Assembly: GCA_043808785.1 (NCBI GenBank)
Contig: JAZDEL010000001.1
Coordinates: 30,001 to 62,000, forward strand
From: Candidatus Iainarchaeum sp.
GTDB taxonomy: Archaea > Iainarchaeota > Iainarchaeia > Iainarchaeales > JAZDEL01
Reading direction: 5' to 3'
DNA length: 32,000 nt
This document shows positions 4,104-25,359 of the stretch, piece after piece. Within the stretch, counting starts at the first letter, position 1. Each line of letters opens with the position of its first letter. The notes beneath the pieces are model-generated. The model saw only the letters and a list, made by a program, of their open reading frames with translations, searched no databases and was not told the origin of the DNA. Both the position numbers and the translations under genes were made by a program.

Positions 4104-4292
4104 TTAAACTGCATCCGTGTTGCGTCCCTCATTTTCGCCCCCCTGCCTTAAGTATTTTTCCAGCTGTTCCAGAATGTAAACAAACGCCCTGCCGTGGGTT
4201 TTCTCGAAGTGTTCAAGGTTTTTGTAGTTCATTTGCCGCGCCAGCCCGTAAAGGAAAACGTGCAACGAACCTGCAACAGGTTTATATCGCAA
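4104..4292 (-). CDS. Hypothetical small protein (possible element-encoded regulator)
   Basis: 62-codon ORF (TTG start, internal ATG at 4232) divergent from abiEi across an AT-rich region. No motif recognised. A competing + strand ORF lies at 4194-4394. Confidence 0.25.
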   Translation of the reverse strand: MRYKPVAGSLHVFLYGLARQMNYKNLEHFEKTHGRAFVYILEQLEKYLRQGGENEGRNTDAV

Positions 4293-4312
4293 TTATACTA
4301 TAATGATATAAT

Positions 4313-4409
4313 TGTGATATGGATGCGGCCGAAGGGTGCGGGAGCCGAAAAACCCCGCGATATGTTTATATTACAATTTACTAAAAAGTATTAAACTGTG
4401 ATATGGATG
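4313..4409 (+). repeat. 13-nt direct repeat TGTGATATGGATG (4313-4325 and 4397-4409)
   Basis: The second copy contains the abiEi GTG/ATG start codons. The first copy lies 84 nt upstream and opens only a 27-codon frame. Confidence 0.6.
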
Positions 4410-8421: not shown

Positions 8422-9363
8422 TTATTTGCCCTTCAGAAATTCTTTCGCCTGCCGCATGTATTCCTCCAGCGTGAATTCCGCCAGGTGTTTCAGGGTGTTT
8501 TTTTCCACCGAATCCATGAGTGCCCTGAAGTATTGCTCCTTTTTTGCGGAAATGTTCAGCAACGGAAAGCCTTCGTCAATCAGCGCCTTATTCAATATCA
8601 GGCGGCAAACCCTTTTGTTCCCGTCAAGAAAGGGGTGGATTTTGTAAAGCCTGTAATGTGCCTGCGCCGCCTTTTCGACAGGGTTCAGCGGCGTAGAGTT
8701 GTACCATTCCACAAACCCGTCAAGCAGCCCCCCAACCTCGCCGTGATGCGGCGGCCTGTAGCCTATCTCCCTGCCTTTCGGATTTTGCACATCCCTTGCC
8801 TGCAGGTAAACCTGCCCCTCCCTGATTTTTCCGGGCGTTTTCCCTTCAAAGCCCGCCATTATGGTTTTGTGCAGGCCGAGAATGTATTGCCTGTCTAGGG
8901 CATGCTTTTCTTTTATGGATTCGACCGCATTCAGCATGTTCTTGCTTATCCGCTCCCGCGCACTGAAACCGCCTTCCTTTTTAAAAGCGTTCCTGACATC
9001 TTCCAGCCCGACATCGACTTCTTCCGTTGTCAGTGTTGACAGGGTAAAAAGGATAGTGCTGTCCACTTCATATTTTCTCCGCCTTACCGCGGAAAGCGCG
9101 GCAAACTTCCTGTTAAATGCATCCCTGATAAGCAGCGCCTTTATCACGCTGTCCTTTGAAATGAGTTCCGCGGCATATTCCTTTCCCGCGAGTTTCAAGA
9201 TTATTTCCCGCCTGAATGATTCCCCGATTTTAGCCAGCCCCCCCTTCGCGGGCTTTTTGGTGCCGACATATTTGCTGAATGTTTTTGATTTCGCCAAGGT
9301 GCGGTAGCCCAAATCAAGATAATAGTATTTTTTATCGTGGATTGTTTTTGTGCGCAGCTTCAT
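8422..9363 (-). CDS. fic: Fic family protein (AMPylase-type Fido domain)
   Basis: Fic motif HPFLDGNKRVCR (HxFx[DE]GN[GK]R). Confidence 0.85.
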   Translation of the reverse strand: MKLRTKTIHDKKYYYLDLGYRTLAKSKTFSKYVGTKKPAKGGLAKIGESFRREIILKLAGKEYAAELISKDSVIKALLIRDAFNRKFAALSAVRRRKYEVDSTILFTLSTLTTEEVDVGLEDVRNAFKKEGGFSARERISKNMLNAVESIKEKHALDRQYILGLHKTIMAGFEGKTPGKIREGQVYLQARDVQNPKGREIGYRPPHHGEVGGLLDGFVEWYNSTPLNPVEKAAQAHYRLYKIHPFLDGNKRVCRLILNKALIDEGFPLLNISAKKEQYFRALMDSVEKNTLKHLAEFTLEEYMRQAKEFLKGK

Positions 9364-9471: not shown

Positions 9472-10401
9472 TCACAGCCCCAGCTGCGAAATCATTCCCT
9501 TTATGCTCTTCACAGCCTCTGAAAACAGCCCCTTCTCTTTCTCATCAAGCTCGAGCTCGACAACCTTCTCCGCCCCCGTTGCCCCGACCCTCACAGGCAC
9601 GCCGATGCAGACATCATTATGCCCGTACTCCCCTTCCAAAAGAACCGAGCACGCGAGTATTTTCTTCTTGTCCTTCAAAACGCACTCCGCCATTTCAGCA
9701 AGCGCCATCGCGGGTGAATAATAAGCCGAACCCTGCTGGAGTAGGGCAACAATTTCAGCGCCCGCGTTCCTCGTGTGCTTAACTGCCTCTTCAATCCTCT
9801 TCTCATGCATTAATTCAGTAATCGGTATCCCCGAAACAGTTGAATAGCGGGGCAAAGGAACCATTGTTTCCCCGTGCGACCCCAGCACCATTGCCTTTAT
9901 GTTCTCGTGGCTAACCCCTAATTCGGAAGCGATAAAACTCGCAAACCTTGCGCTGTCCAGCACGCCCGCCATTCCCAAAACTCTTCCCCTTTCAAAACCG
10001 CTCTTTTTCAGCGCCAAATAAGTCATAACATCCAGCGGGTTTGTTGCGACAATAAGCGCCGCATCTGGTGAATATGCCGCGGCATTTTCAGCAATTCCCC
10101 CCACAATTTTCGCGTTCGCCCCGAGGAGTTCCTCCCTTGTCATTCCCGGCTTCCTTGCCAATCCTGCAGTAACAATAACCAAATCCGAACCCGCGGTTTC
10201 CGCAATATCCGCGCTTCCCCTCACGGAGCAGTTTGCCCCGTCTATGGGCATGCCGTGGGTTAAATCAAGCGCCTTTCCCTTTGCAATGCCCTCCGCAACA
10301 TCAATGAGAACAACATCCCCGAGCCTGCGGTTAAGGGTTATATGTGCAGTTGTGGCGCCCACATTCCCAGCGCCGATAATGCTTATTTTCCTCTGCGCCA
10401 T
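9472..10401 (-). CDS. mdh: Malate dehydrogenase (LDH-like family)
   Basis: GAGNVGATTAH Rossmann motif. GLARKPGMTREEL has Arg at the substrate-discriminating position. LDSARF and SHGETMVP motifs present. Confidence 0.9.
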   Translation of the reverse strand: MAQRKISIIGAGNVGATTAHITLNRRLGDVVLIDVAEGIAKGKALDLTHGMPIDGANCSVRGSADIAETAGSDLVIVTAGLARKPGMTREELLGANAKIVGGIAENAAAYSPDAALIVATNPLDVMTYLALKKSGFERGRVLGMAGVLDSARFASFIASELGVSHENIKAMVLGSHGETMVPLPRYSTVSGIPITELMHEKRIEEAVKHTRNAGAEIVALLQQGSAYYSPAMALAEMAECVLKDKKKILACSVLLEGEYGHNDVCIGVPVRVGATGAEKVVELELDEKEKGLFSEAVKSIKGMISQLGL

Positions 10402-12374: not shown

Positions 12375-12653
12375 ATGGCTGAATATAGGTGTATGGGCAT
12401 GGAAAACCTGAACAACTGGCTTGAGTTTGTTTCCGACAGCGGCGTTTTGAGCGTCCTGCTCTACCTCCGCGAATACAACCCTTCGGTAAGGATTAAGGAT
12501 ATGGGCGAAAACCTCGGCATAGGCGCAGGGAAAATCAGGGATATAGTTTCACAATTGGGCAGGGAACAGATGGTGCAGGTAAGCGGCGGAGGGTATGTGC
12601 GCCTTACCGCACGCGGCAATGTTGCTGTTGAAAGGCTGATGGAGATAGGCTGA
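12375..12653 (+). CDS. Small winged-helix DNA-binding protein
   Basis: LSVLLYLREY..VRIKDMGENLGIGAGKIRDIVSQLGREQMVQV..YVRLTARG fits a helix-turn-helix plus wing pattern. The start may be Met 12393 or 12399, given the TAAATATA box at 12362-12369. Confidence 0.6.
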   Translation: MAEYRCMGMENLNNWLEFVSDSGVLSVLLYLREYNPSVRIKDMGENLGIGAGKIRDIVSQLGREQMVQVSGGGYVRLTARGNVAVERLMEIG

Positions 12654-12843
12654 ATAACCTTGTTTGCCTTTTTGGGTTCGCTTAATTTTGTACCTTCAAT
12701 CCTGCGCCTATTCCTTTCCCAACCTCTTAATTATCCCCGCCGCCACGGCAACCTCTATCAGGCTCAAAGGCACGGCAAAAACAAGCGTCCCGGCGCCAGG
12801 AGGCAATAATAACCTTTATAAAAAACGCCAGCGTTATAGTGTT

Positions 12844-13236
12844 ATGGTGCAATACCCTTCAGTGGAGAAAATAACCGAGATGAATGCGCTTGCCCTCAGT
12901 ATCATCTATGCCAAAAAGGCTGATGAGGCAAAGGTACTGAGCAGGGCAAAAATAACCGAAGTTATCGGGGATTGCGAGGGTTTTAACGGGGACATTTATG
13001 ATAAGGCAGTTGTATTGCTCAAGGGCATAGTCCAGAAGCATCCCTTTGCCAGCGGGAACAGGCGCACTGCATTCCTCGCAATGAAATATTTTTTGCTTGC
13101 CAACAAGGCAAGGCTTGGGATTGAAGATAACCCCGCGAATGCGAGAATCCTGCAGGGCGTAAGGGAAAATTATTATTCAGATGCGGAACTTAAGGAGTGG
13201 GTAAAAAATGGCAAAATCAGGCAATTCTCAAGATAA
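12844..13236 (+). CDS. doc: Doc (death-on-curing) / Fic-fold toxin
   Basis: HPFASGNRRTAF Fido motif in a ~130-aa protein. CTTTATAAAAA box ends about 20 nt upstream of ATG 12844. The 60-codon upstream extension from 12664 has no coding character. Confidence 0.8.
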   Translation: MVQYPSVEKITEMNALALSIIYAKKADEAKVLSRAKITEVIGDCEGFNGDIYDKAVVLLKGIVQKHPFASGNRRTAFLAMKYFLLANKARLGIEDNPANARILQGVRENYYSDAELKEWVKNGKIRQFSR

Positions 13237-13330
13237 GTTAAGGTGCAAAATAGTCTCGGAAGAGTTGGCGGAATTCAACAAGCTCGTGCGCGGGCACAGG
13301 AAACTGCTGGTTGCAATAGGCGAGCTTTAA
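13208..13330 (+). CDS. Candidate 40-aa ORF overlapping the doc 3' end
   Basis: ATG..TAA encodes MAKSGNSQDKLRCKIVSEELAEFNKLVRGHRKLLVAIGEL, which looks helical. Overlaps doc by 29 nt. Too short for the ORF track. No motif recognised. Confidence 0.25.
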   Translation: MAKSGNSQDKLRCKIVSEELAEFNKLVRGHRKLLVAIGEL

Positions 13331-13359
13331 CGCGCCCCGCGCCTGCGTCCGCCTCGTTT

Positions 13360-13377
13360 GCGCGGTTCGCGCGCGGT
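13360..13377 (+). repeat. GC hairpin 18-mer GCGCGGTTCGCGCGCGGT, copy 1
   Basis: Perfect repeat of 14405-14422. A near-identical inverted copy (one extra C) lies at 26082-26100. Confidence 0.7.
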
Positions 13378-13479
13378 CGGTTGCATTTTCCCCAATCCAC
13401 CTTACTGCGCGGCAAAACTCGCTTTGCCACATTTTTTAAGCAAATTGTTGCATTTATATGCCTGTTAGGGATGGTCTGG

Positions 13480-14382
13480 ATGAATGAGAAAGAGAAAATA
13501 ACAAAGCTGCATTCGGCGGCTAGGAAATACTGCTTCGACGGGCTGGAGCGCTTGCGTGTCAAAGGCAAACCAGGTGATGACGGTGCAAGCCTGCTTAGGG
13601 ATATGTTGTCTGACATGCTCAAGAATCTCTTTTGTGCCATTCTATTTCAGATTGAGAAGTTTGACCCTGATGAATTTGGCAAGCCCGGGCTTAATTCGCT
13701 GGAGGTCGCAAGGGCCAAATTCATTGAAGCGGGAAAAAAAGCGCAGTTTGCCAGCAACAGCTTAATTGCGGAAGGGGTGCTTAAAAGGCTTGACAATTAT
13801 GTTTGCGATGCAAAGGATACGCCGATAGCGAAGGCAAGTAATGAAATAATGTCGTTCTGCGATTATGTCGCCAACATTAGCGAAAATGATTTGGCCTGTG
13901 TAGAGGACGTGCCTTACCGGCACGTTTTGCCGGAAGCGATTGCCGATAAACAGTTCATGCGAATGGTTAAGAAATGGGATATGACGATTGAGAAATATCA
14001 TCCTGAGTATAGTGAACTTTTTTGGTGGCCGCTCGCCGAAACAAAATGCCGTGACTTAATTGCCTTGAATTCCGCCCCATTTGAGAAACGGGGGCTTGCA
14101 GGGATCAGGGATATTCTGAGAAAGCACGGCGTCAAAAGAGTGCTGGTGCTTAACTACGGCGATTATTCATATGAAGCAGACCTTTCCATTTTTGACCCCC
14201 GGGCGCAATATTATCCCCAATGGCGCGTGTTTTGCACATCTGAAAAAATGGACTGGGTAATTTACCTTTCCCATGAATCCTCAATCACATTCGGTGGCAA
14301 ATGGCTGGTAGCCAAGGTAAAGAAGGCATATCCTGAATGGAAGTCGCTGGTTTATAGCAGGCTGTTCGAAAATGTCGACTGA
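13480..14382 (+). CDS. Hypothetical protein
   Basis: Start placed at ATG 13480 (or 13471), just downstream of the TTTATAT box at 13453-13459. The ORF-track extension to 13243 crosses the repeat and terminator region. No motif recognised. Confidence 0.65.
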   Translation: MNEKEKITKLHSAARKYCFDGLERLRVKGKPGDDGASLLRDMLSDMLKNLFCAILFQIEKFDPDEFGKPGLNSLEVARAKFIEAGKKAQFASNSLIAEGVLKRLDNYVCDAKDTPIAKASNEIMSFCDYVANISENDLACVEDVPYRHVLPEAIADKQFMRMVKKWDMTIEKYHPEYSELFWWPLAETKCRDLIALNSAPFEKRGLAGIRDILRKHGVKRVLVLNYGDYSYEADLSIFDPRAQYYPQWRVFCTSEKMDWVIYLSHESSITFGGKWLVAKVKKAYPEWKSLVYSRLFENVD

Positions 14383-14604: not shown

Positions 14605-15933
14605 GTGAAACGGATGAACGGAACGCCCTTAACTCCAGAAAAAATCGAGGAATTTTACGGCGCAATGGAATTGCGAAAAGAGCTCTCGTTTAGCGAATTA
14701 TCCCCCTCCAAATCCAACTGGGGAACCCACTCATACCACTCATACCCTGCGAAGTTCGCGCCGCCTCTAGTAAAGTACCTTGTTGAAAACTACACCCGGT
14801 CAAAAGAAATCATATGGGATCCCTTCTGCGGCTCGGGCACAGTAAATGTTGAAGCACTTCGCAACAACAGAAACAGCATCGGCACAGACATAAACCCGAC
14901 AGCAATTTTAATATCGCGGACAAAGACGACCCCACTTAACCCGAAAAAACTGAAGAAGTACGGGGCAAGCCTTCTCAATAAAATTGAAAAACCAGGGCAC
15001 GGGGACGCAAAATATTTCACCAGGCAAGGAATATTAAACGGCAACCTCCCCGAACTCAGGCGGTGGTATGAAGAAGATGCATTGATGGATCTTGCAAAAA
15101 TTTTATTGGCAACTAAAAAAGTGGCTGCTCCCGAACCATATAAGCAATTTGCATTATGTTGCTTCTCATCCATATTAAAAAAAACTTCATATTGGCTAAA
15201 GACAAGTGTCAAGTCGCAATTTGATTACTCGCAAACTCCAGCAAAGCCAATTCGGTCTTTTGAGAACAGTTTTTGCCGCATGGAAAAAATGAATGAGGAT
15301 TTTTATAACGAATCAAAAAACAAAAAAACTTTTGCGAAGCTATACCGCCACGATGCCACAAAAGAAATGAAAAAATTCAGGAACAAAATTGACCACATAG
15401 TCACCAGCCCCCCATATTTAGTTTCTTATGAATATGGGGATATTTTTAGGCTCTCAACATATCTCCTTACTGGCTACGAGGGCCCCAATTACCTCAAATT
15501 CAAGCGGCAGTTTATCGGGACACGGCTTGAAAAAGAAGTCAAAAAAGAAGACTCAACACGCAAAATATTTAATGAGGCGGCAGGCATAGGTTCAGGCGAA
15601 TCCGAAGGAAAGGCGAAAAGTGCATTAAACTATTACCAAGAAATGGCTAACTTTTTCCAAAATGCAAAACTCCACTTAAGGAAAAAAGGCAAGCTTACGC
15701 TGGTCGTCGGGGATGCAGTAATAAATGGGCAAAAAGTGCCAAACGCATACATCCTCTCCAAAATAGCCGAAACTAAAGGGTTTGCAATAGAGGAAAAATT
15801 CAAGCGGGAAATAGGCAGGAAAAACCTGCCTAGCTTTAGGGATAAAACAACTGGCAAATTTGTGCACAAAAGGGACCCTAATGGGGTTTTGGCACATCCT
15901 GAGGAGTATATATTGGCGTTTAAGGTTGCATAA
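14605..15933 (+). CDS. N4-cytosine or N6-adenine DNA methyltransferase (motif I before motif IV)
   Basis: SYPAKFAPPLVKYLV..IWDPFCGSGT (AdoMet motif I) near residue 75 and IVTSPPY (catalytic motif IV) near residue 268, with a ~190-aa putative target-recognition region between them. The start may be ATG 14614. Confidence 0.85.
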   Translation: MKRMNGTPLTPEKIEEFYGAMELRKELSFSELSPSKSNWGTHSYHSYPAKFAPPLVKYLVENYTRSKEIIWDPFCGSGTVNVEALRNNRNSIGTDINPTAILISRTKTTPLNPKKLKKYGASLLNKIEKPGHGDAKYFTRQGILNGNLPELRRWYEEDALMDLAKILLATKKVAAPEPYKQFALCCFSSILKKTSYWLKTSVKSQFDYSQTPAKPIRSFENSFCRMEKMNEDFYNESKNKKTFAKLYRHDATKEMKKFRNKIDHIVTSPPYLVSYEYGDIFRLSTYLLTGYEGPNYLKFKRQFIGTRLEKEVKKEDSTRKIFNEAAGIGSGESEGKAKSALNYYQEMANFFQNAKLHLRKKGKLTLVVGDAVINGQKVPNAYILSKIAETKGFAIEEKFKREIGRKNLPSFRDKTTGKFVHKRDPNGVLAHPEEYILAFKVA

Positions 15934-15968
15934 TGGCATAATAATGTTTCCCAACAAATAGCATAAGC

Positions 15969-18533
15969 ATGGATACTGCGAATCAATTTACCCGCGTCGG
16001 CACAGAAACGTCAAAAATAGAAGTCAGAATTAGCTATAGGATAATTGACTTATTTTCCAATGGGTTGTATAAAAGCCCAAATAAGGCAATAGAAGAACTT
16101 GTGTCGAACTCTTTTGATGCAGGTGCAACAACTACTCATGTCATTTTAAGTCCCGAAGATTTGAAGTCAGGAGACAATGCAATTGCAGTAATTGACAATG
16201 GCATTGGCATGGATAAGCAAGGGTTAGAAGAACATTGGCAGATAGGGGTAAGCCGAAAAAGGGATGATAACTACCCCGCGCCAAAGGGTCGAAAACAAAT
16301 TGGGAGATTTGGAATTGGAAAATTGGCGACATATGTTTTAGCGAATGAACTTACTCACGTAACAAAAGTTGGGAAAAAATATTTTGCAACTACAATGAAC
16401 TATGGGGCGATTCCTGAGGGGGATAATGGGGGGATACATACAGATGAAAAAGTGGAGCTCCCACTAAGAGAACTAACTGAATCTGAAGCAAAGATGGCTC
16501 TTGAGCGATTTATTGGCGGAACTAAATTTAAAAAAACTGGGGCAAAACTTTTTGGGCCAGATGCCGAAGAAACTTGGACTGTTGCCATATTGTCTAATCT
16601 AAAAAAAATGGCAGAAGATCTAAAGATTGGTAGGCTTCGTTGGGTCTTAGAAACTGCGATGCCACTTAGGGACGACTTTAAACTATATCTTAATGGGCTC
16701 ATCGTAGAGCCATCAAAAATTAAAGAAAAAAGAATCGGCAAGTGGATAATCGGAAAAGACATAGTTGAGGTTCCTTCCCCCGCTACTGATAACCTAAAAC
16801 TTTCTGAAGATAGGAGCGTTAAAAAGGATTCAGAACTGAGGTATGGTTTGGAAAGTGAGTCTTTTGGAAGAGTTACGGGGTATGTTGAACTTTATGACGA
16901 TCTATTAACAAAAGGAAAAAATGTAGAGATATTTAGAAGTCATGGTTTTTTCGTATATGTGAGAGATAGGCTAATCAACATTGACGATGAATATTTTGGT
17001 ATAAGTAGCAACTCTTTAAGGCATGGTACATTTAACCGGTTTAGAGCCATACTTCATATTGATGAATTGGACGACGTATTGCGGTCATCAAGAGAATCAG
17101 TAAGTGAAGGTCCGCTGTATGAAGCTGTTAGGAATTTGTTAGCCGGATTGTTTAATTTTGTCCAAAAAAAACAGAAAGAAATAGAAGAAAAGTTAGAGAC
17201 AAGCACTCAAGCATCTGCCAGGCTAGCATCGGCACCAGATAGCTTAACTAAAAAGCCAATCCTCTACTTGTTAGATTTAGCTCTTTCTGGCAAATATTTG
17301 CCTAGGTATTTCATCATACCAAAAAAATTATCAGAAAGTGAAAAAAAATCATTTTTAGAGGAGTTTAAGAATTTAGGGTCAGATAAGTTTATAGAAAAAA
17401 TCGAAAAAATTGAAGAGCTAACTGAATCAGACAAACTAGCCCAGTTAGACATGGGAACTAAAACTTTAAGGATTAACATATTGCACCCTTTTGTTTCACA
17501 TTTTATTGATGAATATAATCGTTCAGCAAAAAATCAAGCGTTAGAATTATTTGCAATTGCTGAAGTTCTATTGGAATGTCAATTATTAGAATTCGGGCAT
17601 CAGCCAACAGTAGTAAGCGACATTCTAGGGGAGAGAGACGAGCTGTTAAGAAACTTAGGGCGATCTACGCCAAGAAGAAATGCATTACTCGTTTCGCAAG
17701 CACTCTTGGATTCGGTAACTAATGAACACCAATTTGAAGAGGAATTAGCGGCAGCATTTGACAGTTTAGGTTTTTATGACGCAATAAGGGTAGGCGGAAA
17801 AGGCAATCCTGACGGAATAGCAAAAGCATATTTATCGGCAGATGAAAAGGGTGGCGAGAAGGCGTATTTTGTAACTCTTGAAGCAAAAAGCAAAAAACAT
17901 AAAGGCAAGATAAGTAAAGATAGAGTCGACATAGCCACTATTGCGCTTCATCGCAAGAAGTATAAGGCAAATTTTGCAGTTGTTGTGGGGCCGGAGTTTC
18001 CAACGACAAGAGGGGAGAAATCAACACTAAGCCAACTGATAAAAGAAGACAGAGAAAAAAATCCCGGAAAAGGGATTACTCTAATTAAGCATGCAGATTT
18101 AGCAAAACTAGTTAGGTTATCTCCTGGAAAAATTACTCTAGATAAACTAAGGGAGCTTTTCGAGAAATGCAGCCTTCCAGAAGAGTCTAAAGCATGGATT
18201 GATAAGGCGTGCGAAGAGGACATAAAAAAAGCTCCTTATAAGGAGATTTTGAAGGCTATCGAAGTGGAGCAGAGAGACGCCCCTTATCAGCCAGTAGAAT
18301 ATGGAAGTATTTGCACAGCATTGAGAAAGGACTTTAAAATTGACCTTAAAAAAAATGAAGTAATTGATCTTTGCAAGGCGTTATCGAGAATGGCGCCAAC
18401 TTGTATTTTCGCGCGGGAAAATAGTGTAGAATTGAATGTAAGGTCTGACAAAATACTCAGTGCCATTAGTTCAGTAGTGGCTCAATATCCAGATGAAGAA
18501 CAAGACAAAATGAAAAAACTAGGCAACGTTTGA
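15969..18533 (+). CDS. GHKL (Bergerat-fold) ATPase fused to a C-terminal Mrr-like PD-(D/E)xK nuclease
   Basis: N box EELVSNSFDAG, G1 VIDNGIGM, G2 GRFGIGKLA. C-terminal FEEELAAAFDSLGF..GNPDGIAKAY..VTLEAKSKK (PD at 17808-17813, ExK at 17880-17888). Confidence 0.85.
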   Translation: MDTANQFTRVGTETSKIEVRISYRIIDLFSNGLYKSPNKAIEELVSNSFDAGATTTHVILSPEDLKSGDNAIAVIDNGIGMDKQGLEEHWQIGVSRKRDDNYPAPKGRKQIGRFGIGKLATYVLANELTHVTKVGKKYFATTMNYGAIPEGDNGGIHTDEKVELPLRELTESEAKMALERFIGGTKFKKTGAKLFGPDAEETWTVAILSNLKKMAEDLKIGRLRWVLETAMPLRDDFKLYLNGLIVEPSKIKEKRIGKWIIGKDIVEVPSPATDNLKLSEDRSVKKDSELRYGLESESFGRVTGYVELYDDLLTKGKNVEIFRSHGFFVYVRDRLINIDDEYFGISSNSLRHGTFNRFRAILHIDELDDVLRSSRESVSEGPLYEAVRNLLAGLFNFVQKKQKEIEEKLETSTQASARLASAPDSLTKKPILYLLDLALSGKYLPRYFIIPKKLSESEKKSFLEEFKNLGSDKFIEKIEKIEELTESDKLAQLDMGTKTLRINILHPFVSHFIDEYNRSAKNQALELFAIAEVLLECQLLEFGHQPTVVSDILGERDELLRNLGRSTPRRNALLVSQALLDSVTNEHQFEEELAAAFDSLGFYDAIRVGGKGNPDGIAKAYLSADEKGGEKAYFVTLEAKSKKHKGKISKDRVDIATIALHRKKYKANFAVVVGPEFPTTRGEKSTLSQLIKEDREKNPGKGITLIKHADLAKLVRLSPGKITLDKLRELFEKCSLPEESKAWIDKACEEDIKKAPYKEILKAIEVEQRDAPYQPVEYGSICTALRKDFKIDLKKNEVIDLCKALSRMAPTCIFARENSVELNVRSDKILSAISSVVAQYPDEEQDKMKKLGNV

Positions 18534-18551
18534 ATACGTGGGCGCTAAAAT

Positions 18552-19100
18552 ATGGACTCATTAAAACTTAGAAGTATTCTCGAAAATGGTGGCACTAAGG
18601 ATAACCGTCTTATTGCGGGGATTGAAAAATTTATAAATGATGAAAAGTTTCTTTTGGCCAATGACCTCAATGAGAGAACAATGTCTGCCAAACTGGCGCA
18701 ATACCTGCAAAAAGAATACTGCTCGGATTATTTTGTGGATTGCGAATACAACCGCATGTTGGACAAAAATGTAAACTATGCGGATAGTGCAAAACGACTG
18801 CCAGGTAATTATGATAAGACTGCGCCCACAACCGACTTAAAGGGGAAAACTGTCTACCCCGACATTATCATCCATAAGGAACGAAAAAGGAATAATGGCA
18901 ATTATATTGTTATTGAGGTAAAAAAGGAAGTGAATAACGAAGATAAAACACTTGATTTTTCAAAATTAAAAAAATTCACTAAGATATACTCGAGCCCTTA
19001 CTCATTAAATTACGAATGGGGCATTTATTTGGAATTTAATAAAGAAGAGTTGTCTGATGTCAGATTGTTCAAGAATGGAAAGCAAATAAATCCGGTCTGA
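18552..19100 (+). CDS. Small stand-alone PD-(D/E)xK nuclease-fold protein
   Basis: VDCEYNR .. YPDIIIH (18858-18863) .. VIEVKK (18915-18923). Lies 18 nt downstream of the GHKL gene. Confidence 0.65.
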   Translation: MDSLKLRSILENGGTKDNRLIAGIEKFINDEKFLLANDLNERTMSAKLAQYLQKEYCSDYFVDCEYNRMLDKNVNYADSAKRLPGNYDKTAPTTDLKGKTVYPDIIIHKERKRNNGNYIVIEVKKEVNNEDKTLDFSKLKKFTKIYSSPYSLNYEWGIYLEFNKEELSDVRLFKNGKQINPV

Positions 19101-19110
19101 AAAATTAGCG

Positions 19111-19254
19111 CTATTTCCTCAGCACCAATTCAATCTGCTTATTTTTCGGCTCCAGCTCCAGTTCATCGCCATCCTTCAGCCCAAGTAGGGTCAGCGTGTC
19201 CTTCGGGAGCAGTATGCCGAGCGAGTTCCCTATTTTCCTTATCTTGACCTTCAT
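19111..19254 (-). CDS. AbrB/MazE/SpoVT-type swapped-hairpin DNA-binding protein (47 aa)
   Basis: MKVKIRKIGNSLGILLPKDTLTLLGLKDGDELELEPKNKQIELVLRK matches the canonical SpoVT-AbrB pattern. Not in the ORF track because it is under 60 aa. Confidence 0.75.
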   Translation of the reverse strand: MKVKIRKIGNSLGILLPKDTLTLLGLKDGDELELEPKNKQIELVLRK

Positions 19255-19322
19255 GTTATAACTGTTGTAATAACTACCTTTAAAAGGTTTTCGTGTTATT
19301 ACATAAGTAATAACTTAAAAGG
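19255..19322. promoter_or_regulatory. Operator-like GTAATAAC repeats with palindromic TATA box
   Basis: GTTATAAC (19255-19262), GTAATAACTACCTTTAAAAGG (19267-19287), inverted GTTATTAC (19295-19302), GTAATAACTTAAAAGG (19307-19322). CCTTTAAAAGG lies about 25-30 nt from the abrB-like ATG. Confidence 0.55.
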
Positions 19323-19324
19323 TC

Positions 19325-19498
19325 ATGGTTAAAATGGACCCCTCCGTCTCCCGTTTCATCTTCGGCACAATCTGCTGGCTCCCCCTCGGCTTCTGCGTGG
19401 CGCTGGCGAGATGGGGGCGTATGGAGGAGGCTTATGCACTTGCGAAGTACAGCGCGGTGTTTTTGGCGGGGGCCAGCATAGCGGGATGGCTTGGTTAA
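19325..19498 (+). CDS. Candidate 57-aa membrane protein
   Basis: MVKMDPSVSRFIFGTICWLPLGFCVALARWGRMEEAYALAKYSAVFLAGASIAGWLG. Its last 12 codons recur at 22013-22048 with only synonymous or conservative changes, which argues for translation. Confidence 0.5.
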   Translation: MVKMDPSVSRFIFGTICWLPLGFCVALARWGRMEEAYALAKYSAVFLAGASIAGWLG

Positions 19499-19505
19499 AA
19501 AGCTT

Positions 19506-19538
19506 GCACCGGAAATGCACCCTCGGGAGATTTTTAAA
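19506..19538 (+). promoter_or_regulatory. Conserved 20-mer + TATA module, copy 3
   Basis: GCACCGGAAATGCACCCTCG (17/20 identical to copies 1 and 2), then 5 nt, then TTTTTAAA. Upstream of dcm. Confidence 0.5.
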
Positions 19539-19608
19539 TGGAACCAAATATTTTATTTTTATCGGACAGCCTCTGCCTCGATGTAAAAAATCCTTTGGGG
19601 GTGTCTGA

Positions 19609-20826
19609 ATGAATGATTTAAATAGTTTCGGAACAGTTACTGTTATGATGGCGAAGGGACACAAAAAAATGGGCCTGAACTTCATCGACCTTTTCGCGGG
19701 AGCCGGCGGGCTGTCGTGTGGCCTGGAAAGGGCGGGGTTAAATTGCATACTGGGCGTTGACTTCGACAGGGCGGCGATGGAGACCTTCAAAAGGAACCAC
19801 CCGAACGCCGAGGTCTTCGTGGGCGACATAGCGAAGCTCGACGATGAAACCGCGCTTAGGCTGACAAAAAACAGGGAGGTCGACCTCGTGTGTGGCGGCC
19901 CGCCGTGCCAGGGCCTTTCAACGGTGGGCAAGGGGATTCCAAACGACCCCCGAAACCTGCTTTTTCTGCAGTTTGTGAGGCTGGTGAAACTTTTTTCCCC
20001 GAAATACATAATGCTGGAAAATGTGACCGGGTTGCTGGGCAAAAAGAACCGGAACATCCTTAATGGCATAATGTCCGAGTTCGAAAAACTGGGCTATCAT
20101 CTCGATGTCCAGGTGCTGTCGGCGCACCATTACGGCGCCCCGCAGAAAAGAAGGAGGACGATTTTCATAGGGAACAGGATGGGCTACGCGAATATCTTCC
20201 CCGAAATAATGTTCGATGCGCACGACGCATGCTTGCCCCCCGCCAAGACGGTCGGCGACGCGTTCAAATCCCTGGGCATGGGGGACGGCGGGACGCATAA
20301 CCACGATGTCGGCGGCGCATCAATTCCCGAGGGCACAGAAAGGGAGATTATCAGGCGCATCCCAGAGGGGCGGTATATCCGCTATGAAAGCGACGAACTC
20401 GAGCTTCTGCCGAAGGAACTGCATCTTGGCGTTGACTGGCGCACAATTCAGGAGGGCAGGCTGCGGCAGGCGAAATACAGGAGGCTCCACAGGGATGAGC
20501 CCTCCCCGACAATAATGACCGACGGGCACACATACTACCACCCGATTGAGGACAGATTCATCACCGTGAGGGAGGGCGCGGCTATACAGGGCTTTCCCAA
20601 TGATTTCGTGTTCGAGGGCACGGTCTCGCAGCAGTGGAGGCAGGTCGGCAACGCCGTTCCGCCGCCGCTTGCGGAGGCGATCGGGAAGGCGATACTGAAA
20701 ATGGAACTCGAGAAAAATGGAACAATACCGCGGACCAAGGATTTGGAGGGGATACGGAGCCACGCGTTCAATTACAAAACAAAATCAAACACAAACAGGG
20801 GACAACAGAAATTATTGGTTAGATAA
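19609..20826 (+). CDS. dcm: DNA (cytosine-5)-methyltransferase
   Basis: Motif I FIDLFAGAGG, IV GGPPCQGLS, VI ENV, VIII QKRRRTIFIG, X GNAVPPPLA. Confidence 0.92.
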   Translation: MNDLNSFGTVTVMMAKGHKKMGLNFIDLFAGAGGLSCGLERAGLNCILGVDFDRAAMETFKRNHPNAEVFVGDIAKLDDETALRLTKNREVDLVCGGPPCQGLSTVGKGIPNDPRNLLFLQFVRLVKLFSPKYIMLENVTGLLGKKNRNILNGIMSEFEKLGYHLDVQVLSAHHYGAPQKRRRTIFIGNRMGYANIFPEIMFDAHDACLPPAKTVGDAFKSLGMGDGGTHNHDVGGASIPEGTEREIIRRIPEGRYIRYESDELELLPKELHLGVDWRTIQEGRLRQAKYRRLHRDEPSPTIMTDGHTYYHPIEDRFITVREGAAIQGFPNDFVFEGTVSQQWRQVGNAVPPPLAEAIGKAILKMELEKNGTIPRTKDLEGIRSHAFNYKTKSNTNRGQQKLLVR

Positions 20827-20840
20827 AATGCATAATATCG

Positions 20841-21554
20841 CTAGGGCTCTATATCGGGAAATCTCGTGTCCGATACGTCCTCAATATTAAGGGGGGATTC
20901 CTTTGGCTTGCCAAGTACCTTTAAAACGGCATAGAAGGTATAATTGTGGATTGGAAAACTGTTAATTACCTTGGCTCTTAGTCGCAGGGTAAACCTTGTA
21001 TCAAAGGGGGGCGCGCCCAGATTGGCCGGATCACACCTTAAACTATAGAACCCATAACCATCGCCAACTTGCATATAATAACAGTTTTTAAGCTCGTAAA
21101 ATTTGAAAAGAGCATCGGAGGTGGTTGTAAGGCTCGTGTCTTCAAAGTTAATCTGGTCCTGATGCCTGTCTTCAGCCGTCAATTCCCCCTTATTTTTGAC
21201 AAATTTATTTGGCTTGAATTTTTTGCCGTTCGCCACTTTCAGCGCCCCAAGAGCGGTATATTTCCTAGTCAACGGATCATCTTTTGACCAAGTCCAGCCG
21301 CCCCCTTCGGACCACTTAAAAGTCCTTTGACCATAATCCGCCTTAAGGTCCGCCTTTATCTCAAGGTTGTATTTGTTGCCTCCATGAATAAAAATGGCGT
21401 CAACACCACCGCCGGCTCCTGCCCGTTGAAAGCCGGGAGCCAAAACGCCCCTCTCACGCATAATCTCGACCACCTTATCCTCATAGGCATCGCCCTTGTT
21501 GTATGGCGCCTTTTTCTTCATGGGCTTTTTGTTAAGATCCAACTGCATTGGCAT
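20841..21554 (-). CDS. Putative type II restriction endonuclease (PD-(D/E)xK-like)
   Basis: Convergent with dcm (14-nt gap). GGVDAIFIHGGNKYNLEIKA fits D-x12-ExK. Start placed at Met 21554, where TGATG overlaps the vsr stop. The ORF-track start at 21611 would overlap vsr by 58 nt. Confidence 0.6.
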   Translation of the reverse strand: MPMQLDLNKKPMKKKAPYNKGDAYEDKVVEIMRERGVLAPGFQRAGAGGGVDAIFIHGGNKYNLEIKADLKADYGQRTFKWSEGGGWTWSKDDPLTRKYTALGALKVANGKKFKPNKFVKNKGELTAEDRHQDQINFEDTSLTTTSDALFKFYELKNCYYMQVGDGYGFYSLRCDPANLGAPPFDTRFTLRLRAKVINSFPIHNYTFYAVLKVLGKPKESPLNIEDVSDTRFPDIEP

Positions 21555-21946
21555 CAACCCATAATTTTTCCCATTGAACGATTGAAATCTTTCCTCAAAT
21601 TGTGTTCCCAAATGACAATTACCCTGAACCCAAGTTTTCTTAAAGTGCTCCTGACGGCTTTATCCCGCCTTAAATTTGCCATTATCTTCCTTTTCCAAAA
21701 GGCCCTGTTCGATTTGGGCGCCCTGTAGCATTTTGGGCAGGCGTGCCAGAAGCAGCCGTGAAGAAGGATGGCGGCATTCGTGCCGTGAATCAGGATGTCG
21801 GCGCCGGGCGCAGCTTTCGGGTGCATGGTGTGGCGCACCCTGTGCCCCTTGAGGAAATTGTGGGCTCTTCGCTCGGGCGATGTCCATTTGTAACGGATTT
21901 TGGACATTATTTTGCTTCGTTTCGCCTTTGAGAACTTGTCAACCAC
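21554..21946 (-). CDS. vsr: Very-short-patch repair endonuclease
   Basis: SKIMSKIR..TSPE, DILI..AILLHGCFWHACP, SNRAFWKRKIMANLRRD and VIVIWEH are all Vsr signatures. Confidence 0.9.
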   Translation of the reverse strand: MVDKFSKAKRSKIMSKIRYKWTSPERRAHNFLKGHRVRHTMHPKAAPGADILIHGTNAAILLHGCFWHACPKCYRAPKSNRAFWKRKIMANLRRDKAVRSTLRKLGFRVIVIWEHNLRKDFNRSMGKIMG

Positions 21947-21985
21947 GATAGTATTTCAGGGGAAAACAATAAAAGCAGTGTTTTT

Positions 21986-22048
21986 CGATATGCAAATTGC
22001 GGCGTTTTGTTCCTGGCGGGGGCGAGCTTGGCGGGGTGGCTTGGATAG
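21986..22048 (+). pseudogene. 3' fragment of a paralog of the 19325-19498 small ORF
   Basis: RYANCGVLFLAGASLAGWLG* aligns with KYSAVFLAGASIAGWLG*. No start codon follows the in-frame TGA at 21929-21931. Confidence 0.5.
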
Positions 22049-22212
22049 TAGTGATGTTACGCCAGTAGGTAATATGCGCGAAACGAAATCGTAAAAATAG
22101 GGTTTGCCTTCCTCTCAGGCTGGGAAAGTGGGTCGCGCTGATCCGGCGCATAGCCGCTCGTGAACTTGGGTGAAGTCATAACGAAGCAATATTGCTAACT
22201 TGTTTTAAAGTG

Positions 22213-23886
22213 TCATTTTTCCCCTTTTACTATTGTTTTTACTCTGCTTTTTATGTTTTCACGAGTCGTTTCTAATTTCTTTTTTGCTTGGTCAGTTAAA
22301 CGCGCCGTGTGCATAACTGCGTCCCTAATTGGTTTATATTCGTTTGCATCTCTTGAAAGACAAGCTTCTTTTATTGGGTCGCGCTTGTCTACTAAATTGG
22401 CTAAGCCATCCATGGATAAATAGCTTGTGTCATCAGGGCTTTTCCTGAGAGGAATGCTAATGTTCCCTTTATTTTTATTATTCTTTTCTTTATCTTTGTA
22501 TTTGTTTATTTCCTTAACTGCCTCACCACTTAAGTTGATTTTATTTTTTTCAATATGTTTTCTAATAAGATTTTCAGCAATGAAGCATTCTGCATATGAT
22601 GTAAAATTAAATTGCGCATCATTGGCTAACTCGTCTACCCATTTATCAACTGTTGATTTTTCTTTCTTGTCGTCATCATTTTTATCTTCATAATCTTTTG
22701 AGACTGCGTTAAACAACCCTCTGGATTTACGCTCTTTTTCGGTACGCCTTTGGTTTTCTAGGTCTCCATCCTGCCTATGTTTTACTCTCCAATCATCCCA
22801 ATCATCAAGAATTTTCGCTATGGTCTTCTCCATGTCTTTTAGGAAAGTGGAGTATTTTTCATCGTTAGCCACTATTCCTTCTCTGGCTGTTGCAAATCTA
22901 TCTATTTTATCTTCATCAAGCTCGTTAAAATGAATCTGACCATATAAATAGCTTTCGACAACTCTGGCAGTGGGGATATGTTTCAGTATATCTCTTTCTC
23001 TGAGTCGCCCATTGACAAAAAGGTCGACCCCAACCTTTTCGCCTTCAGAACCAAAAATTTTCAAGTCTTTAGGAAGCATAACCGAAGCTATAAAACCGCT
23101 CACCTTTTCATCCATGCTGATTATTTTGGATTCTTTTAAGTTCTTGAGTTTTTCATCAATATACTCGTCTTTGAATGTGTTAATATTCCATAAAAATTGG
23201 GTTTTTTCTGCTAAAACTTTTAGGTCATCAAGAGATATTTCTTCGTCGTTTAAAAATATCTTAAATGAGTCGTCAATTAAGGAAAACCTAAAATATAATG
23301 CAATAACTTTCCTAAGATGTTCCGATGTGTTTTTTATGCCATCATTTATTTTGTCAAAATAAATAATCGTCCCTTTTTTGTGGTCAACAGTATATCTCTT
23401 AACCAGATCTAAATCGAATTTTTCCAGCGGATATTCTTGTGGCTTTAAGTTATCCGTAATTGCATCAGTTAACCCAGAATTGTCAATAGTCCCCCCTACA
23501 TACTCGCCATTTTCAGTCTTCGTAACGACCATGACTTTTTCGGCACAAGATAATAGAGCCAACTTGCCTATGCCTTTTCGTCCAATATATGGCCTCTTGC
23601 AAATAGGTGAACTATTTCGGGTAATTTTCCCGACTTGTCTTTTGGTATACCCGATCAATAAAAATTTATCTTGAAAATCATTTGACGTCATCCCCTCTCC
23701 ATCATCCTTTATCACCAAGCCATCAGTATTTTTATCTATGTAAATCCACACATTCTTGGCGCAGGCATCCCATGAGTTGGAGATAGCTTCTCCGAGAACA
23801 GTTACAAAATTTCTATATAGATTTCTCCCAAGATGATTCAAGACACTTAATGAAATATTGAATGTGAATTTTTCATTATCCTCCAT
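22213..23886 (-). CDS. GHKL (Bergerat-fold) ATPase with C-terminal HEPN-like Rx4H motif
   Basis: N box GEAISNSWDA, G1 VIKDDGEGM, G2 GRKGIGKLA. The middle region is homologous to the 15969-18533 protein. C-terminal KPIRDAVMHTARLT (R521..H526, nt 22309-22326). Confidence 0.8.
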   Translation of the reverse strand: MEDNEKFTFNISLSVLNHLGRNLYRNFVTVLGEAISNSWDACAKNVWIYIDKNTDGLVIKDDGEGMTSNDFQDKFLLIGYTKRQVGKITRNSSPICKRPYIGRKGIGKLALLSCAEKVMVVTKTENGEYVGGTIDNSGLTDAITDNLKPQEYPLEKFDLDLVKRYTVDHKKGTIIYFDKINDGIKNTSEHLRKVIALYFRFSLIDDSFKIFLNDEEISLDDLKVLAEKTQFLWNINTFKDEYIDEKLKNLKESKIISMDEKVSGFIASVMLPKDLKIFGSEGEKVGVDLFVNGRLRERDILKHIPTARVVESYLYGQIHFNELDEDKIDRFATAREGIVANDEKYSTFLKDMEKTIAKILDDWDDWRVKHRQDGDLENQRRTEKERKSRGLFNAVSKDYEDKNDDDKKEKSTVDKWVDELANDAQFNFTSYAECFIAENLIRKHIEKNKINLSGEAVKEINKYKDKEKNNKNKGNISIPLRKSPDDTSYLSMDGLANLVDKRDPIKEACLSRDANEYKPIRDAVMHTARLTDQAKKKLETTRENIKSRVKTIVKGEK

Positions 23887-24919
23887 AGTTAACGCCCCCT
23901 ATGTGGGCTCTCACAGTTTTGGCTATCGCCCGCCCAAGTTTTACGGGAACCGCGTTTCCGATATGCCTCGCCAACCTCGTAATCATGTACTTATCTTTTG
24001 GGTCAATAAACTTATAACTTTTAGGAAACGACTGAAGAATCGCGGCTTCCCTCAATGATATTGCCCTGTCCTGTTCTGGATGCCCAAAGCGACCATTCCC
24101 CAAGCCTATGCACTGAGTAGTTATTGTTGGCGATGCTCCATCCCAATTCATCCTCCCATAAACCGAGCCGAATGATTTCCCCCCTTTCTTTTTGTGACAG
24201 GACAAAACTAGAGTTTTATCCCAATCACGCCAGCCGCCCCCCATGGGGGTGGCAACTATCCTTTTCTTGTTCAGTTGAGACAATTTCCTTGAGCGATGCA
24301 ATTTGTCTTTTGGGGAGGTTTCCCCATCGCTAATTTTTTCGAGCTTGCATATTGCTTGCCTGACTGTTTTAGGATTTTTATGAGTAGGGGCGATTAATTC
24401 AAGTTCGCCGAGTTTGGAAGCCAACAAGACAAGTCTTTTCCTTGTTTGAGGCACCCCGTAGTGCATAGCATTTACTGTTGAATAAGTTACATGGTAGTCC
24501 AATGCTTCCAAATTCTGTACAAAATCATGGAACACTTTTGCCCTCATTAACTGAGGAACATTCTCCATTGACACAATTTCGGGCTTGACCTCTTCGATCA
24601 GCCTTGAAAATTCATACAGCAAACCCCATTTATCATCTCGCCTCTTTTTAATGTTGTATGTTGAAAAAGGTTGGCAGGGAGCGCAACCAACCAAAACTTT
24701 AATGGCGTTCTTTGGGTAGAGCGTTTTAAGTTCTTCAGAAGATGTCTCCTGAATTGGTTTGTTAATAAACTTAGAGTTATTGTTGGCTTCATATGCAAAC
24801 TTACAAGAAGCATCGGAATCTATGCCTGCCACGACGTTAAAATTTTCCTTTACGAAACCATGGGTTAGGCCACCTACCCCGCAGAACACGTCTACAACAG
24901 CGACAGATTTGGCTTCCAT
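23876..24919 (-). CDS. dcm: DNA (cytosine-5)-methyltransferase
   Basis: Motif I VVDVFCGVGG, IV GCAPCQPFS, VI MENV, VIII QTRKRLVLLA, X GNAVPVKLG. Overlaps the downstream GHKL gene by 11 nt. Confidence 0.92.
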   Translation of the reverse strand: MEAKSVAVVDVFCGVGGLTHGFVKENFNVVAGIDSDASCKFAYEANNNSKFINKPIQETSSEELKTLYPKNAIKVLVGCAPCQPFSTYNIKKRRDDKWGLLYEFSRLIEEVKPEIVSMENVPQLMRAKVFHDFVQNLEALDYHVTYSTVNAMHYGVPQTRKRLVLLASKLGELELIAPTHKNPKTVRQAICKLEKISDGETSPKDKLHRSRKLSQLNKKRIVATPMGGGWRDWDKTLVLSCHKKKGGKSFGSVYGRMNWDGASPTITTQCIGLGNGRFGHPEQDRAISLREAAILQSFPKSYKFIDPKDKYMITRLARHIGNAVPVKLGRAIAKTVRAHIGGVNYGG

Positions 24920-24969
24920 CCTACGTTATCAGCATCAATAGGTTTTAATTAATATCGATGCGGGCAAAT

Positions 24970-25359
24970 CTACGATAAAGCACGTTGTATTCTTTTTGGT
25001 AGAATTCCCTTTTTTAGCTCGTGTTCCCAAATACGAATTATCTTCCACCCTTCCAACTCTAATGCTCGCGTTATCTCCTTGTCCCGCTCCATGTTTCTTT
25101 TAAGTTTCTTGCTCCAGAATCGCTTATTTGACTTAGGGATAGTTCCATGCAGGGGGCACCCGTGCCAAAAACAACCGTCAACCATGATTGCAATTTTTTT
25201 CGATACGAATGCGATATCTATTTTATATTGCGAATAGTTTACTCTAAATCGGCAACCTCGCCTAAATAGCATTGAGCGCAATGCCAATTCGGGCGCAGTG
25301 TCCTTTTGCTTTACTGATCGCATTATTTTACGCCTAACGGCTTTCGAGACGTTATCCAT
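24970..25359 (-). CDS. vsr: Very-short-patch repair endonuclease
   Basis: RRKIMRSVKQKDTAPE, IDIAF..IAIMVDGCFWHGCP, SNKRFWSKKLKRNMERD, IIRIWEHEL. Confidence 0.9.
   Translation of the reverse strand: MDNVSKAVRRKIMRSVKQKDTAPELALRSMLFRRGCRFRVNYSQYKIDIAFVSKKIAIMVDGCFWHGCPLHGTIPKSNKRFWSKKLKRNMERDKEITRALELEGWKIIRIWEHELKKGILPKRIQRALS

Follow-up and report, generated by a model that had tools for sequence, protein, structure and literature searches.

Two methyltransferase-linked GHKL ATPase proteins of a Candidatus Iainarchaeum genomic island share a homologous core and differ in their C-terminal ends

Introduction

Two genes encoding GHKL-type ATPases lie in one island of an archaeal genome, each beside a DNA methyltransferase gene, which raises the question of whether a single ATPase scaffold has been combined here with different effector ends. 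The island was examined in a window of 32,000 nucleotides (nt) from Candidatus Iainarchaeum sp. (assembly GCA_043808785.1, contig JAZDEL010000001.1, positions 30,001 to 62,000 of the forward strand), and all coordinates given below are positions in this window. The first gene (15969-18533, + strand) encodes a protein of 854 amino acids (aa), here called ProtA, and the second (22213-23886, - strand) a protein of 557 aa, here called ProtB. An earlier note on this DNA, made from the sequence alone, had described the two proteins as sharing a sensor/ATPase chassis with interchangeable effectors. Both open reading frames (ORFs) were confirmed and hold the segments quoted in that note. Identical copies of both proteins are present at NCBI, where each is labelled 'ATP-binding protein'.

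The two loci are probably two separate restriction-modification (R-M) type modules, each composed of a methyltransferase and a single-chain effector protein with an ATPase engine of the MutL/MORC/Hsp90 class and an effector end of its own. The evidence for the common core is presented first, followed by that for the two ends, for an exchange of effectors among relatives of ProtB, and for the linkage with methyltransferases.

Results

Pairwise BLASTP of ProtA against ProtB matched the N-terminal ATP-binding region only (ProtA 13-151 against ProtB 3-142, E 4e-8) and missed the middle segment. BLASTP was too insensitive for the middle regions and was replaced by profiles, for which family alignments of 40 sequences each were used. 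Full-length hhalign of the family profiles aligned ProtA 16-398 with ProtB 6-363 (about 380 residues, probability 98.7%, E 3.7e-16), and the three segment pairs quoted in the earlier note fell in exactly the register given there. As the score of the full-length alignment was dominated by the N-terminal domain, the alignments were cut into parts. The N-terminal parts alone gave an E-value of 1.2e-21. The middle alone (ProtA 285-410 against ProtB 250-375) scored 31.3 (P 9.7e-5), compared with 12.9 ± 2.6 for column shuffles (maximum 22.0, n = 100) and 11.7 for the reversed alignment. A larger middle section (ProtA 156-410 against ProtB 146-375) scored 35.0 (P 2.3e-4), compared with 15.3 ± 2.8 for column shuffles (maximum 23.1, n = 60) and 15.5 for the reversed alignment, and owed much of its score to an additional block that the earlier note had not mentioned (LRDDFKLYLNG in ProtA, IDDSFKIFLND in ProtB). 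Block shuffles were rejected as a null (mean 27.1), because the intact homologous block still aligns in them. Mismatched controls, in which a middle region was aligned to a C-terminus, gave P values of about 0.25.

The same register was obtained independently by MAFFT alignment of the mixed middle regions, in which several columns were invariant in both families: T, D..F, G (TGY / SGF), R-L (RDRL / NGRL), R (FNR / TAR), D (ELD) and R-E (SSRE / TARE). A match of this kind could in principle be what any two GHKL proteins give through a generic fold and composition, and would then be uninformative about a common chassis. The blindness of BLASTP to the middle, the identity of about 20% in this region (about 21% over the whole core) and the weak match, at an unexpected position, between the middle of the ProtA family and that of the BbrUII restriction enzyme family considered below (E 0.0059, 23 columns) are all consistent with that explanation. 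It is, however, largely refuted by a score about 7 standard deviations over the column shuffles and also above the reversed control, by the collinearity of the middle match with the N-terminal match and by the invariant residues common to both families. Moreover, neither middle was similar in sequence to PDB chains of Hsp90, MutL or MORC, so the ProtA and ProtB families are nearer relatives of one another than of those proteins. A generic match is therefore very improbable. The cores of ProtA and ProtB are homologous, and their similarity, in pairwise and profile alignment together, extended past the generic GHKL motifs, as the earlier note had proposed. The C-termini of the two proteins did not align (hhalign P 0.15) and are unrelated.

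Both proteins begin with a GHKL (Bergerat-fold) ATP-binding domain, which spans residues 1-211 of ProtA (15969-16601, + strand; Pfam HATPase_c_3, E 3.7e-19) and residues 1-180 of ProtB (23347-23886, - strand; HATPase_c_3, E 2.1e-18). The defining motifs of the GHKL superfamily (E/N-x3-N-x2-D, D-x-G-x-G, G-x2-G-x-G, together with a T that is conserved in the final strand) were present in both. The motif residues were invariant across the 40 homologs of each protein, namely E42/E43, N47, D50, D76, G78, G112, G115 and G117 in ProtA, and E33, N37, D40, D61-D62-G63, G65, G102, G105 and G107 in ProtB.

The shared middle domain follows directly, at residues 212-410 of ProtA (16602-17198, + strand; identified by hhalign, shuffles, MAFFT and Foldseek, with G326..R334-L335 and R372-S-S-R375-E376) and residues 181-375 of ProtB (22762-23346, - strand; identified by hhalign, the NCBIfam model NF050001 and Foldseek, with G286..R294-L295 and R335-E336). 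The AlphaFold2 models had pLDDT (predicted local distance difference test) values of 78.5 for ProtA and 70.9 for ProtB, and the predicted secondary-structure elements from the last GHKL strand to a long helix (ProtA 382-408, ProtB 343-369) corresponded one to one. In Foldseek searches both models matched full-length Hsp90/TRAP1 (N and M domains) over about 400-730 columns, with an E-value of 2e-13 for ProtA and of about 1e-8 for ProtB. The ProtA model also matched MORC2, MORC3 and MORC4 in their two-domain ATPase modules, with TM (template modelling) scores by target of 0.50-0.57 and root-mean-square deviations of 6.5-8.6 Å; the match of the ProtB model to MORC2 was weaker (TM by target 0.35-0.37). 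Among viral structures, the ProtB model matched only those of GHKL type (Hsp90, topoisomerase II ATPase subunits and rIIA), and its C-terminal domain was unmatched. By these whole-chain matches, both models place a second alpha+beta domain directly after the GHKL domain, as in modules of the MutL/MORC/paraMORC type. A combined profile of the middle domains, compared with the PDB by sequence, matched no solved structure. The shared middle is best read, from the predicted structures, as a second domain of the S5/transducer type, which in MutL, MORC, Hsp90 and GyrB completes the ATPase. What had been proposed as a special sensor scaffold thus appears to be the ordinary second domain of this ATPase module.

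The middle domain carries two conserved features. A strand motif of the form G-h-x-h-h-x-x-x-R-h reads HGFFVYVRDRL in ProtA and VGVDLFVNGRL in ProtB, and as a VNGR-type strand it resembles MutL. From its sequence, it also appears to resemble closely the signature of the MORC S5 domain, GhXhhpXXRhl (Iyer et al. 2008, PMC2292703): compared by eye, G326-FFVYVRD-R334-LI agreed at 7 of the 8 specified positions and G286-VDLFVNG-R294-LR at 6 of 8, the polar position being V in both. Further downstream, R375 (in SSRE) and R335 (in TARE) are invariant and mutually aligned across both families, and this Arg-Glu pair likely supplies the basic residue that would touch the gamma-phosphate of ATP.

In ProtA the core is followed by a mostly helical linker with a small beta unit in the AlphaFold2 secondary structure (residues 411-570, 17199-17678, + strand), for which no Pfam match was found when isolated pieces were searched at E-values up to 10. 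Residues 571-720 (17679-18128, + strand) then form a predicted PD-(D/E)xK nuclease domain, as the earlier note had proposed. P614-D615 and E638-A-K640 were invariant in the 40 homologs and E590 was at least 90% conserved. The model places a helix at 586-600, strands at 603-607, 616-622 and 631-639, a helix at 655-664 and a strand at 669-674, which gives the alpha-beta-beta-beta-alpha-beta order of the PD-(D/E)xK core with the catalytic D...(D/E)-x-K residues upon it. The domain looks Mrr/FokI-like by sequence: Mrr_cat matched ProtA just below its cut-off (20.0 bits against 21, E 7.7e-4), and among 40 members of the family weak matches (E up to 1) to FokI_cleav_dom occurred in 8, to Mrr_cat in 2 and to Hjc in 1. 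The protein ends in a conserved C-terminal helical region, delimited by secondary structure and with conserved W743, L761 and other residues (residues 721-854, 18129-18533, + strand).

The end of ProtB is different in kind. Residues 376-557, with the stop codon (22213-22761, - strand), were predicted by AlphaFold2 to be free of beta strands, and the all-helical domain has two conserved motifs, E438-x3-R442 and R521-D-x3-H526-T527. In sequences as little as 28% identical, N439, R442, R521, H526 and T527 were still invariant, and the conservation of E438 was at least 90%. HEPN domains are defined by an Rx4-6H motif in which a polar residue (N, D or H) follows the R, and by an upstream acidic residue in helix 2, typically within E-x3-[KR] (Anantharaman et al. 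2013, PMC3710099). Both features were found in ProtB: in a set of 24 diverse sequences the arginine of R521-D-A-V-M-H526 was followed by D or N, and E438-N-L-I-R442 lies in a predicted helix (432-448). The helices were predicted at 407-424, 432-448, 454-470 and 486-499 (an insert), 509-526 and 532-553, so that Rx4H ends the penultimate helix. This order is consistent with the HEPN fold, an up-down bundle of four helices in which an insert separates helices 2 and 3 and the motif closes helix 3, in a part of the model where pLDDT was 52-80.

Profile searches did not recover the family. No HEPN Pfam family was matched in 40 members of the ProtB family (E up to 1) or by the isolated domain (E up to 10), Ymh (PF09509) being among those unmatched; no NCBIfam model matched the C-terminus (E up to 0.01), and a profile search of the PDB with the C-terminal family alignment was empty. 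A phmmer search with the domain against 1.84 billion representative sequences gave 190 matches, all of them to ProtB-type proteins or fragments, and by this measure the domain appears confined to the ProtB architecture. The HEPN-like end named in the earlier note was retained with moderate confidence, from the invariant Rx4H and the predicted helices, and not from any Pfam, NCBIfam or PDB profile match. If it is a HEPN domain, it may be a new, separate family outside the current models.

The C-terminus of ProtB might instead be a truncated and degenerate remnant of the PD-(D/E)xK nuclease found in BbrUII-type enzymes, or a DNA-binding or regulatory helical domain in which Rx4H is coincidental or structural. 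The failure of all HEPN profiles and the restriction of the domain to one architecture are compatible with this, and MAFFT aligned E438, D486 and L498-V-D500-K-R502 of ProtB with the E, D and (E/D)-L-K residues that BbrUII-type proteins have, and R521-D522 with their Y-R-D. In the same alignment, however, the position of the ExK lysine is not retained and the fourth strand is missing, and ProtB 376-557 was predicted without any beta strand. The comparison of the two types of C-terminal domain by hhalign was not significant (E 0.08, 10 columns), and the nuclease remnant hinted at by MAFFT was rejected on this result. The pair of E-x3-R and R-[DN]-x3-H motifs, with their placement in the helices, also matches the published HEPN definition. 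These alternatives to a HEPN-like domain are considered unlikely.

The closest relatives of the ProtB core are restriction enzymes. ProtB 7-378 matched positions 1-372 of NF050001 (BbrUII/HgiDII family restriction enzyme) with an E-value of 4.5e-86. Its score of 289.8 bits was below the full-length cut-off of 550 bits because the last 287 profile positions were unmatched; ProtA scored 64.8 bits over positions 4-134 only. True members of the family scored 650-830 bits over the full length. The PADLOC models for Type II restriction enzymes likewise matched ProtB in part. In hhalign comparisons the middle of the BbrUII family matched that of ProtB with an E-value of 2.3e-35, and the C-termini were unrelated (E 0.08).

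The BbrUII/HgiDII-type C-terminal domain contains an invariant E...D...E-L-K in plasmid relatives (loci L008-L011 and L015-L020). Divergent relatives matched the Pfam model SduA_C of the Shedu nuclease (L020, E 3.1e-6; L018, E 0.0037), and the BbrUII/HgiDII C-terminus is, by sequence, likely to be a Shedu-like PD-(D/E)xK nuclease. As the core of ProtB is that of a close relative of enzymes ending in such a nuclease, the exchange of effectors on the ProtB/BbrUII chassis is judged to be real from these profile comparisons. True BbrUII/HgiDII members on plasmids are 661-677 aa long, and most of those sampled directly adjoin a C5 methyltransferase. The window's own C5 methyltransferase beside ProtB is 45-58% identical to the partners of ProtB-type and BbrUII-type proteins, and 45-52% identical to those of true BbrUII/HgiDII members. 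M.HgiDII and M.BbrUII methylate the site GTCGAC.

The earlier note had also called for a phylogeny of the GHKL core with the C-terminal ends mapped onto it. In a crude neighbour-joining tree of the cores, the ProtB family was nested in the PD-(D/E)xK-bearing BbrUII/HgiDII clade, and the ProtA family fell outside it, in a clade of its own that also held an 881-aa haloarchaeal protein. The proposal of a common chassis with interchangeable effectors thus holds for ProtB and BbrUII/HgiDII, which on these comparisons form the informative swap pair. ProtA and ProtB themselves, at about 21% core identity and in separate clades, are distant cousins and not a swap pair.

Three of the loci sampled showed other features. 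The BbrUII-like GHKL protein of Rubrobacter (L015) lies beside a DEAD/DEAH helicase, a PD-(D/E)xK nuclease and a restriction endonuclease, and that of Sinorhizobium (L020) beside a DEAD/DEAH helicase, with no methyltransferase in view at either locus; these helicase neighbours recall the MORC-helicase operons of Iyer et al. (PMC2292703). The relative of the ProtB core at L013 in Neisseria gonorrhoeae (3456-5135), with 27% identity over residues 5-387, is broken up into short ORFs and has the look of a pseudogene, and the locus was dropped as a source of a Ymh-fused relative on account of this fragmentation. The PLSDB record of L013 is labelled a plasmid and is 2.17 Mb long, the size of a chromosome.

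As the earlier note had stated, each GHKL gene lies immediately downstream of a methyltransferase gene of a different class. The partner of ProtA is an N6/N4 (amino) DNA methyltransferase (14605-15933, + strand; Pfam N6_N4_Mtase, E 1.1e-19; PADLOC MTase_II, E 2.4e-44), and the ProtA gene begins 36 nt downstream of it. The partner of ProtB is a C5 cytosine DNA methyltransferase (23876-24919, - strand; Pfam DNA_methylase, E 6.3e-63), whose gene overlaps that of ProtB, directly downstream, by 11 nt. Upstream of this methyltransferase is a gene for a Vsr very-short-patch repair endonuclease (24970-25359, - strand; Pfam Vsr, E 3.3e-19). The coupling was kept in relatives. Homologs of ProtA adjoin an N6_N4 methyltransferase, with a gene order opposite to that in the window. 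Homologs of ProtB are found in the order Vsr, C5 methyltransferase, GHKL at L002 and L003, and in the order C5 methyltransferase, GHKL at L012. Methyltransferase linkage is therefore conserved for both modules, and each retains an adjacent cognate methyltransferase with its effector gene as Type II R-M systems do.

Vsr was also present near relatives of ProtB at L006, L017 and L019. Together with the conserved gene order, this could mean that ProtB is a MutL-like accessory of very-short-patch repair rather than an immune effector, acting with the adjacent Vsr to correct T:G mismatches that arise by deamination of the 5-methylcytosine introduced by its partner enzyme, a function that would be useful in an archaeon without MutL. 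The core of ProtB is MutL/MORC-like, and E. coli MutL stimulates Vsr. Iyer et al. (PMC2292703) draw a parallel of MutL and Vsr/MutH with paraMORC systems. Against a role in repair, several relatives (L008-L012) have a methyltransferase with no Vsr in view, and a second C5 methyltransferase elsewhere in the window is accompanied by a Vsr of its own and by no GHKL gene, which indicates that Vsr tracks the methyltransferase. The C-terminus of ProtB bears the invariant, catalytic-type R-[DN]-x3-H, and curators class the sister family (NF050001) as restriction enzymes. The repair role was regarded as distinctly unlikely, and ProtB is treated below as an effector.

The second C5 methyltransferase belongs to a third methylation module of the island (19609-21946). 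Its gene (19609-20826, + strand) is convergent with a 256-aa ORF (20841-21611, - strand) that had no family match and is a candidate restriction enzyme; the second Vsr gene (21554-21946, - strand) overlaps the start of this ORF by 58 nt. A 'tRNA-???' with a two-base anticodon, called by ARAGORN within the 256-aa ORF (21385-21480, - strand), is probably a false call.

The island is bounded by a malate dehydrogenase gene (9472-10401) and an A/V-type ATPase operon (from 25417). The GC (guanine plus cytosine) content is 0.37-0.40 over both GHKL modules (0.37-0.43 over 15001-19000 and 22001-25000) compared with 0.49-0.55 in the flanking DNA, a range into which the central module with its C5 methyltransferase also falls. 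The low-GC patches suggest separate horizontal acquisitions of the two GHKL modules.

A 182-aa ORF (18552-19100, + strand) starts 19 nt 3' of the ProtA gene and matched PADLOC PD-Lambda-3_A (E 1.2e-20) and no Pfam family. No counterpart of it, by size or Pfam annotation, was present after the ProtA homologs at the three loci examined (L001, L004 and L005). The 379-aa ORF upstream of the N6/N4 methyltransferase gene (13243-14382, + strand) matched nothing in Pfam, NCBIfam or PADLOC. Two Fic/DOC-family proteins are encoded at the island's left side or close to it (8422-9363, - strand, E 9e-20; 12664-13236, + strand, E 2e-8), and a 92-aa ORF (12375-12653) lies immediately upstream of the second of these.

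Discussion

The arrangement of both modules suggests how they might work. By analogy with MutL, MORC and Hsp90, and with the model of Iyer et al., ATP binding would make the N-terminal domains dimerise and so close as a clamp on the DNA. The methyltransferase would mark the host's own sites as self, and on unmarked DNA the ATP cycle would license the C-terminal effector. ProtA would then be an ATP-dependent restriction enzyme with a PD-(D/E)xK DNase. In VcSduA, a Shedu protein of type I-D with a GHKL N-terminus, ATPase and nuclease residues are both needed for phage defence (PMC12137116), and mutants in either lose defence. The HEPN-like domain of ProtB would most likely act as a metal-independent RNase in an abortive or second-line response; action on DNA seems less likely. 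We infer ATP dependence, the dimer clamp, the sensing of methylation and the substrate of the HEPN-like domain by analogy with these systems. If this is correct, ProtB would belong to an R-M-type module in which a GHKL clamp on unmethylated DNA turns on an RNase and so leads to growth arrest or abortive infection, not to DNA cleavage.

Several points weigh against this view of the two modules. Both families are known from sequences and predicted structures. The S5/transducer identity of the middle domain was drawn from whole-chain Foldseek matches, whereas the sequence profile found no solved structure, and the phosphate-sensor role of R375/R335 is one that we infer from conservation. The HEPN assignment has neither profile nor structural-search matches behind it, and the model is of pLDDT 52-80 in that region. 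HgiDII and BbrUII rank as ordinary Type II enzymes, for which no dependence on ATP is reported in the papers cited here. Finally, for an RNase paired with a DNA methyltransferase no trigger has been demonstrated.

A more specific proposal is that the ProtB family represents an unrecognised HEPN family which replaced a Shedu-like DNase on the BbrUII/HgiDII chassis, with the C5 methyltransferase and Vsr kept. It is possible, though doubtful. The two families themselves have many members and a broad distribution, with about 2,200 and 4,600 database clusters that passed E 0.001 in the respective searches.

Comparison with known systems

The design of a GHKL engine with interchangeable effectors is already published, for paraMORCs and for GHKL restriction-enzyme subfamilies in 2008 and for HEPN-paraMORC fusions in 2013. 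The general principle has been known since then, and the finding in this form would come as no surprise to specialists. The paraMORC families 1-5 combine GHKL and S5 modules with variable C-terminal domains and occur in operons that also encode Vsr and methylases for cytosine or, rarely, adenine (Iyer, Abhiman & Aravind 2008, PMC2292703). ProtA and ProtB resemble them in their intact-motif GHKL domain, in the S5-type second domain and in having family-specific C-terminal extensions, which in paraMORC3 have a restriction-endonuclease fold and in paraMORC4 are TIR domains. The neighbourhoods with methylases and Vsr and the sporadic, laterally mobile distribution are further likenesses (PMC2292703). 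The two proteins differ from paraMORC3-like and Shedu proteins in that no match to Pfam SduA_C (DUF4263) or PADLOC Shedu was found in either, the nuclease of ProtA looking Mrr/FokI-like; the numbered paraMORC families were compared by description only.

VcSduA is similar in being a single chain with a GHKL ATPase, a clamp-like middle and a C-terminal PD-(D/E)xK nuclease. It differs in that its nuclease is of the DUF4263/SduA_C type and that it has no dedicated methyltransferase, whereas ProtA and ProtB are each methyltransferase-coupled. By Foldseek, the two-domain ATPase fold is common to ProtA, ProtB, MutL (with MutH or Vsr), MORC and Hsp90, and in MutL a nuclease is also under the control of the GHKL engine. 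Unlike MutL, however, ProtA and ProtB lack its C-terminal dimerisation/endonuclease domain and have no repair context except the adjacent Vsr, and sequence similarity to MutL, MORC and Hsp90 is undetectable past the ATP-binding domain.

For the end of ProtB, the nearest precedents are fusions of Ymh (PF09509), recognised as a HEPN family, to paraMORC ATPases in R-M neighbourhoods, for which a function like that of the anticodon nucleases PrrC/RloC, as a second-line RNase, has been proposed (PMC3710099). These proteins and the R.NmeAIP subfamily (PMC2441816) resemble ProtB in joining a GHKL ATPase to a C-terminal helical Rx4H domain in a methyltransferase neighbourhood, and differ in that the domain of ProtB matches neither Ymh nor other HEPN models. 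Literature searches for experiments on defence proteins of the GHKL-HEPN type or on MORC defence proteins of prokaryotes yielded nothing beyond PMC2292703, PMC2441816, PMC3710099 and PMC12137116. The helical Rx4H domain, which is covered by no current model, may be the novel element of ProtB.

Five subfamilies of Type II restriction enzymes with an N-terminal GHKL domain and differing C-termini were described by Orlowski and Bujnicki (2008, PMC2441816); one ends in PD-(D/E)xK, one in 'Hypoth_Ymh', and the C-terminus of HgiDII was left unassigned. The Shedu-like assignment of the latter is possibly new. The BbrUII/HgiDII family (NF050001; R.HgiDII in PMC2441816) shares with ProtB its core and the upstream C5 methyltransferase, and differs in its E...D...E-L-K nuclease, in place of which ProtB has a helical Rx4H domain of 180 residues. 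One GHKL and S5 core, with one type of C5 methyltransferase and two different ends, is a natural example of effector exchange. The pairing of ProtB with BbrUII/HgiDII offers a handle on what the ATPase engine senses and on how unrelated effectors are licensed by it, a question that extends to MORC, paraMORC, MutL-like and Shedu-type defence proteins.

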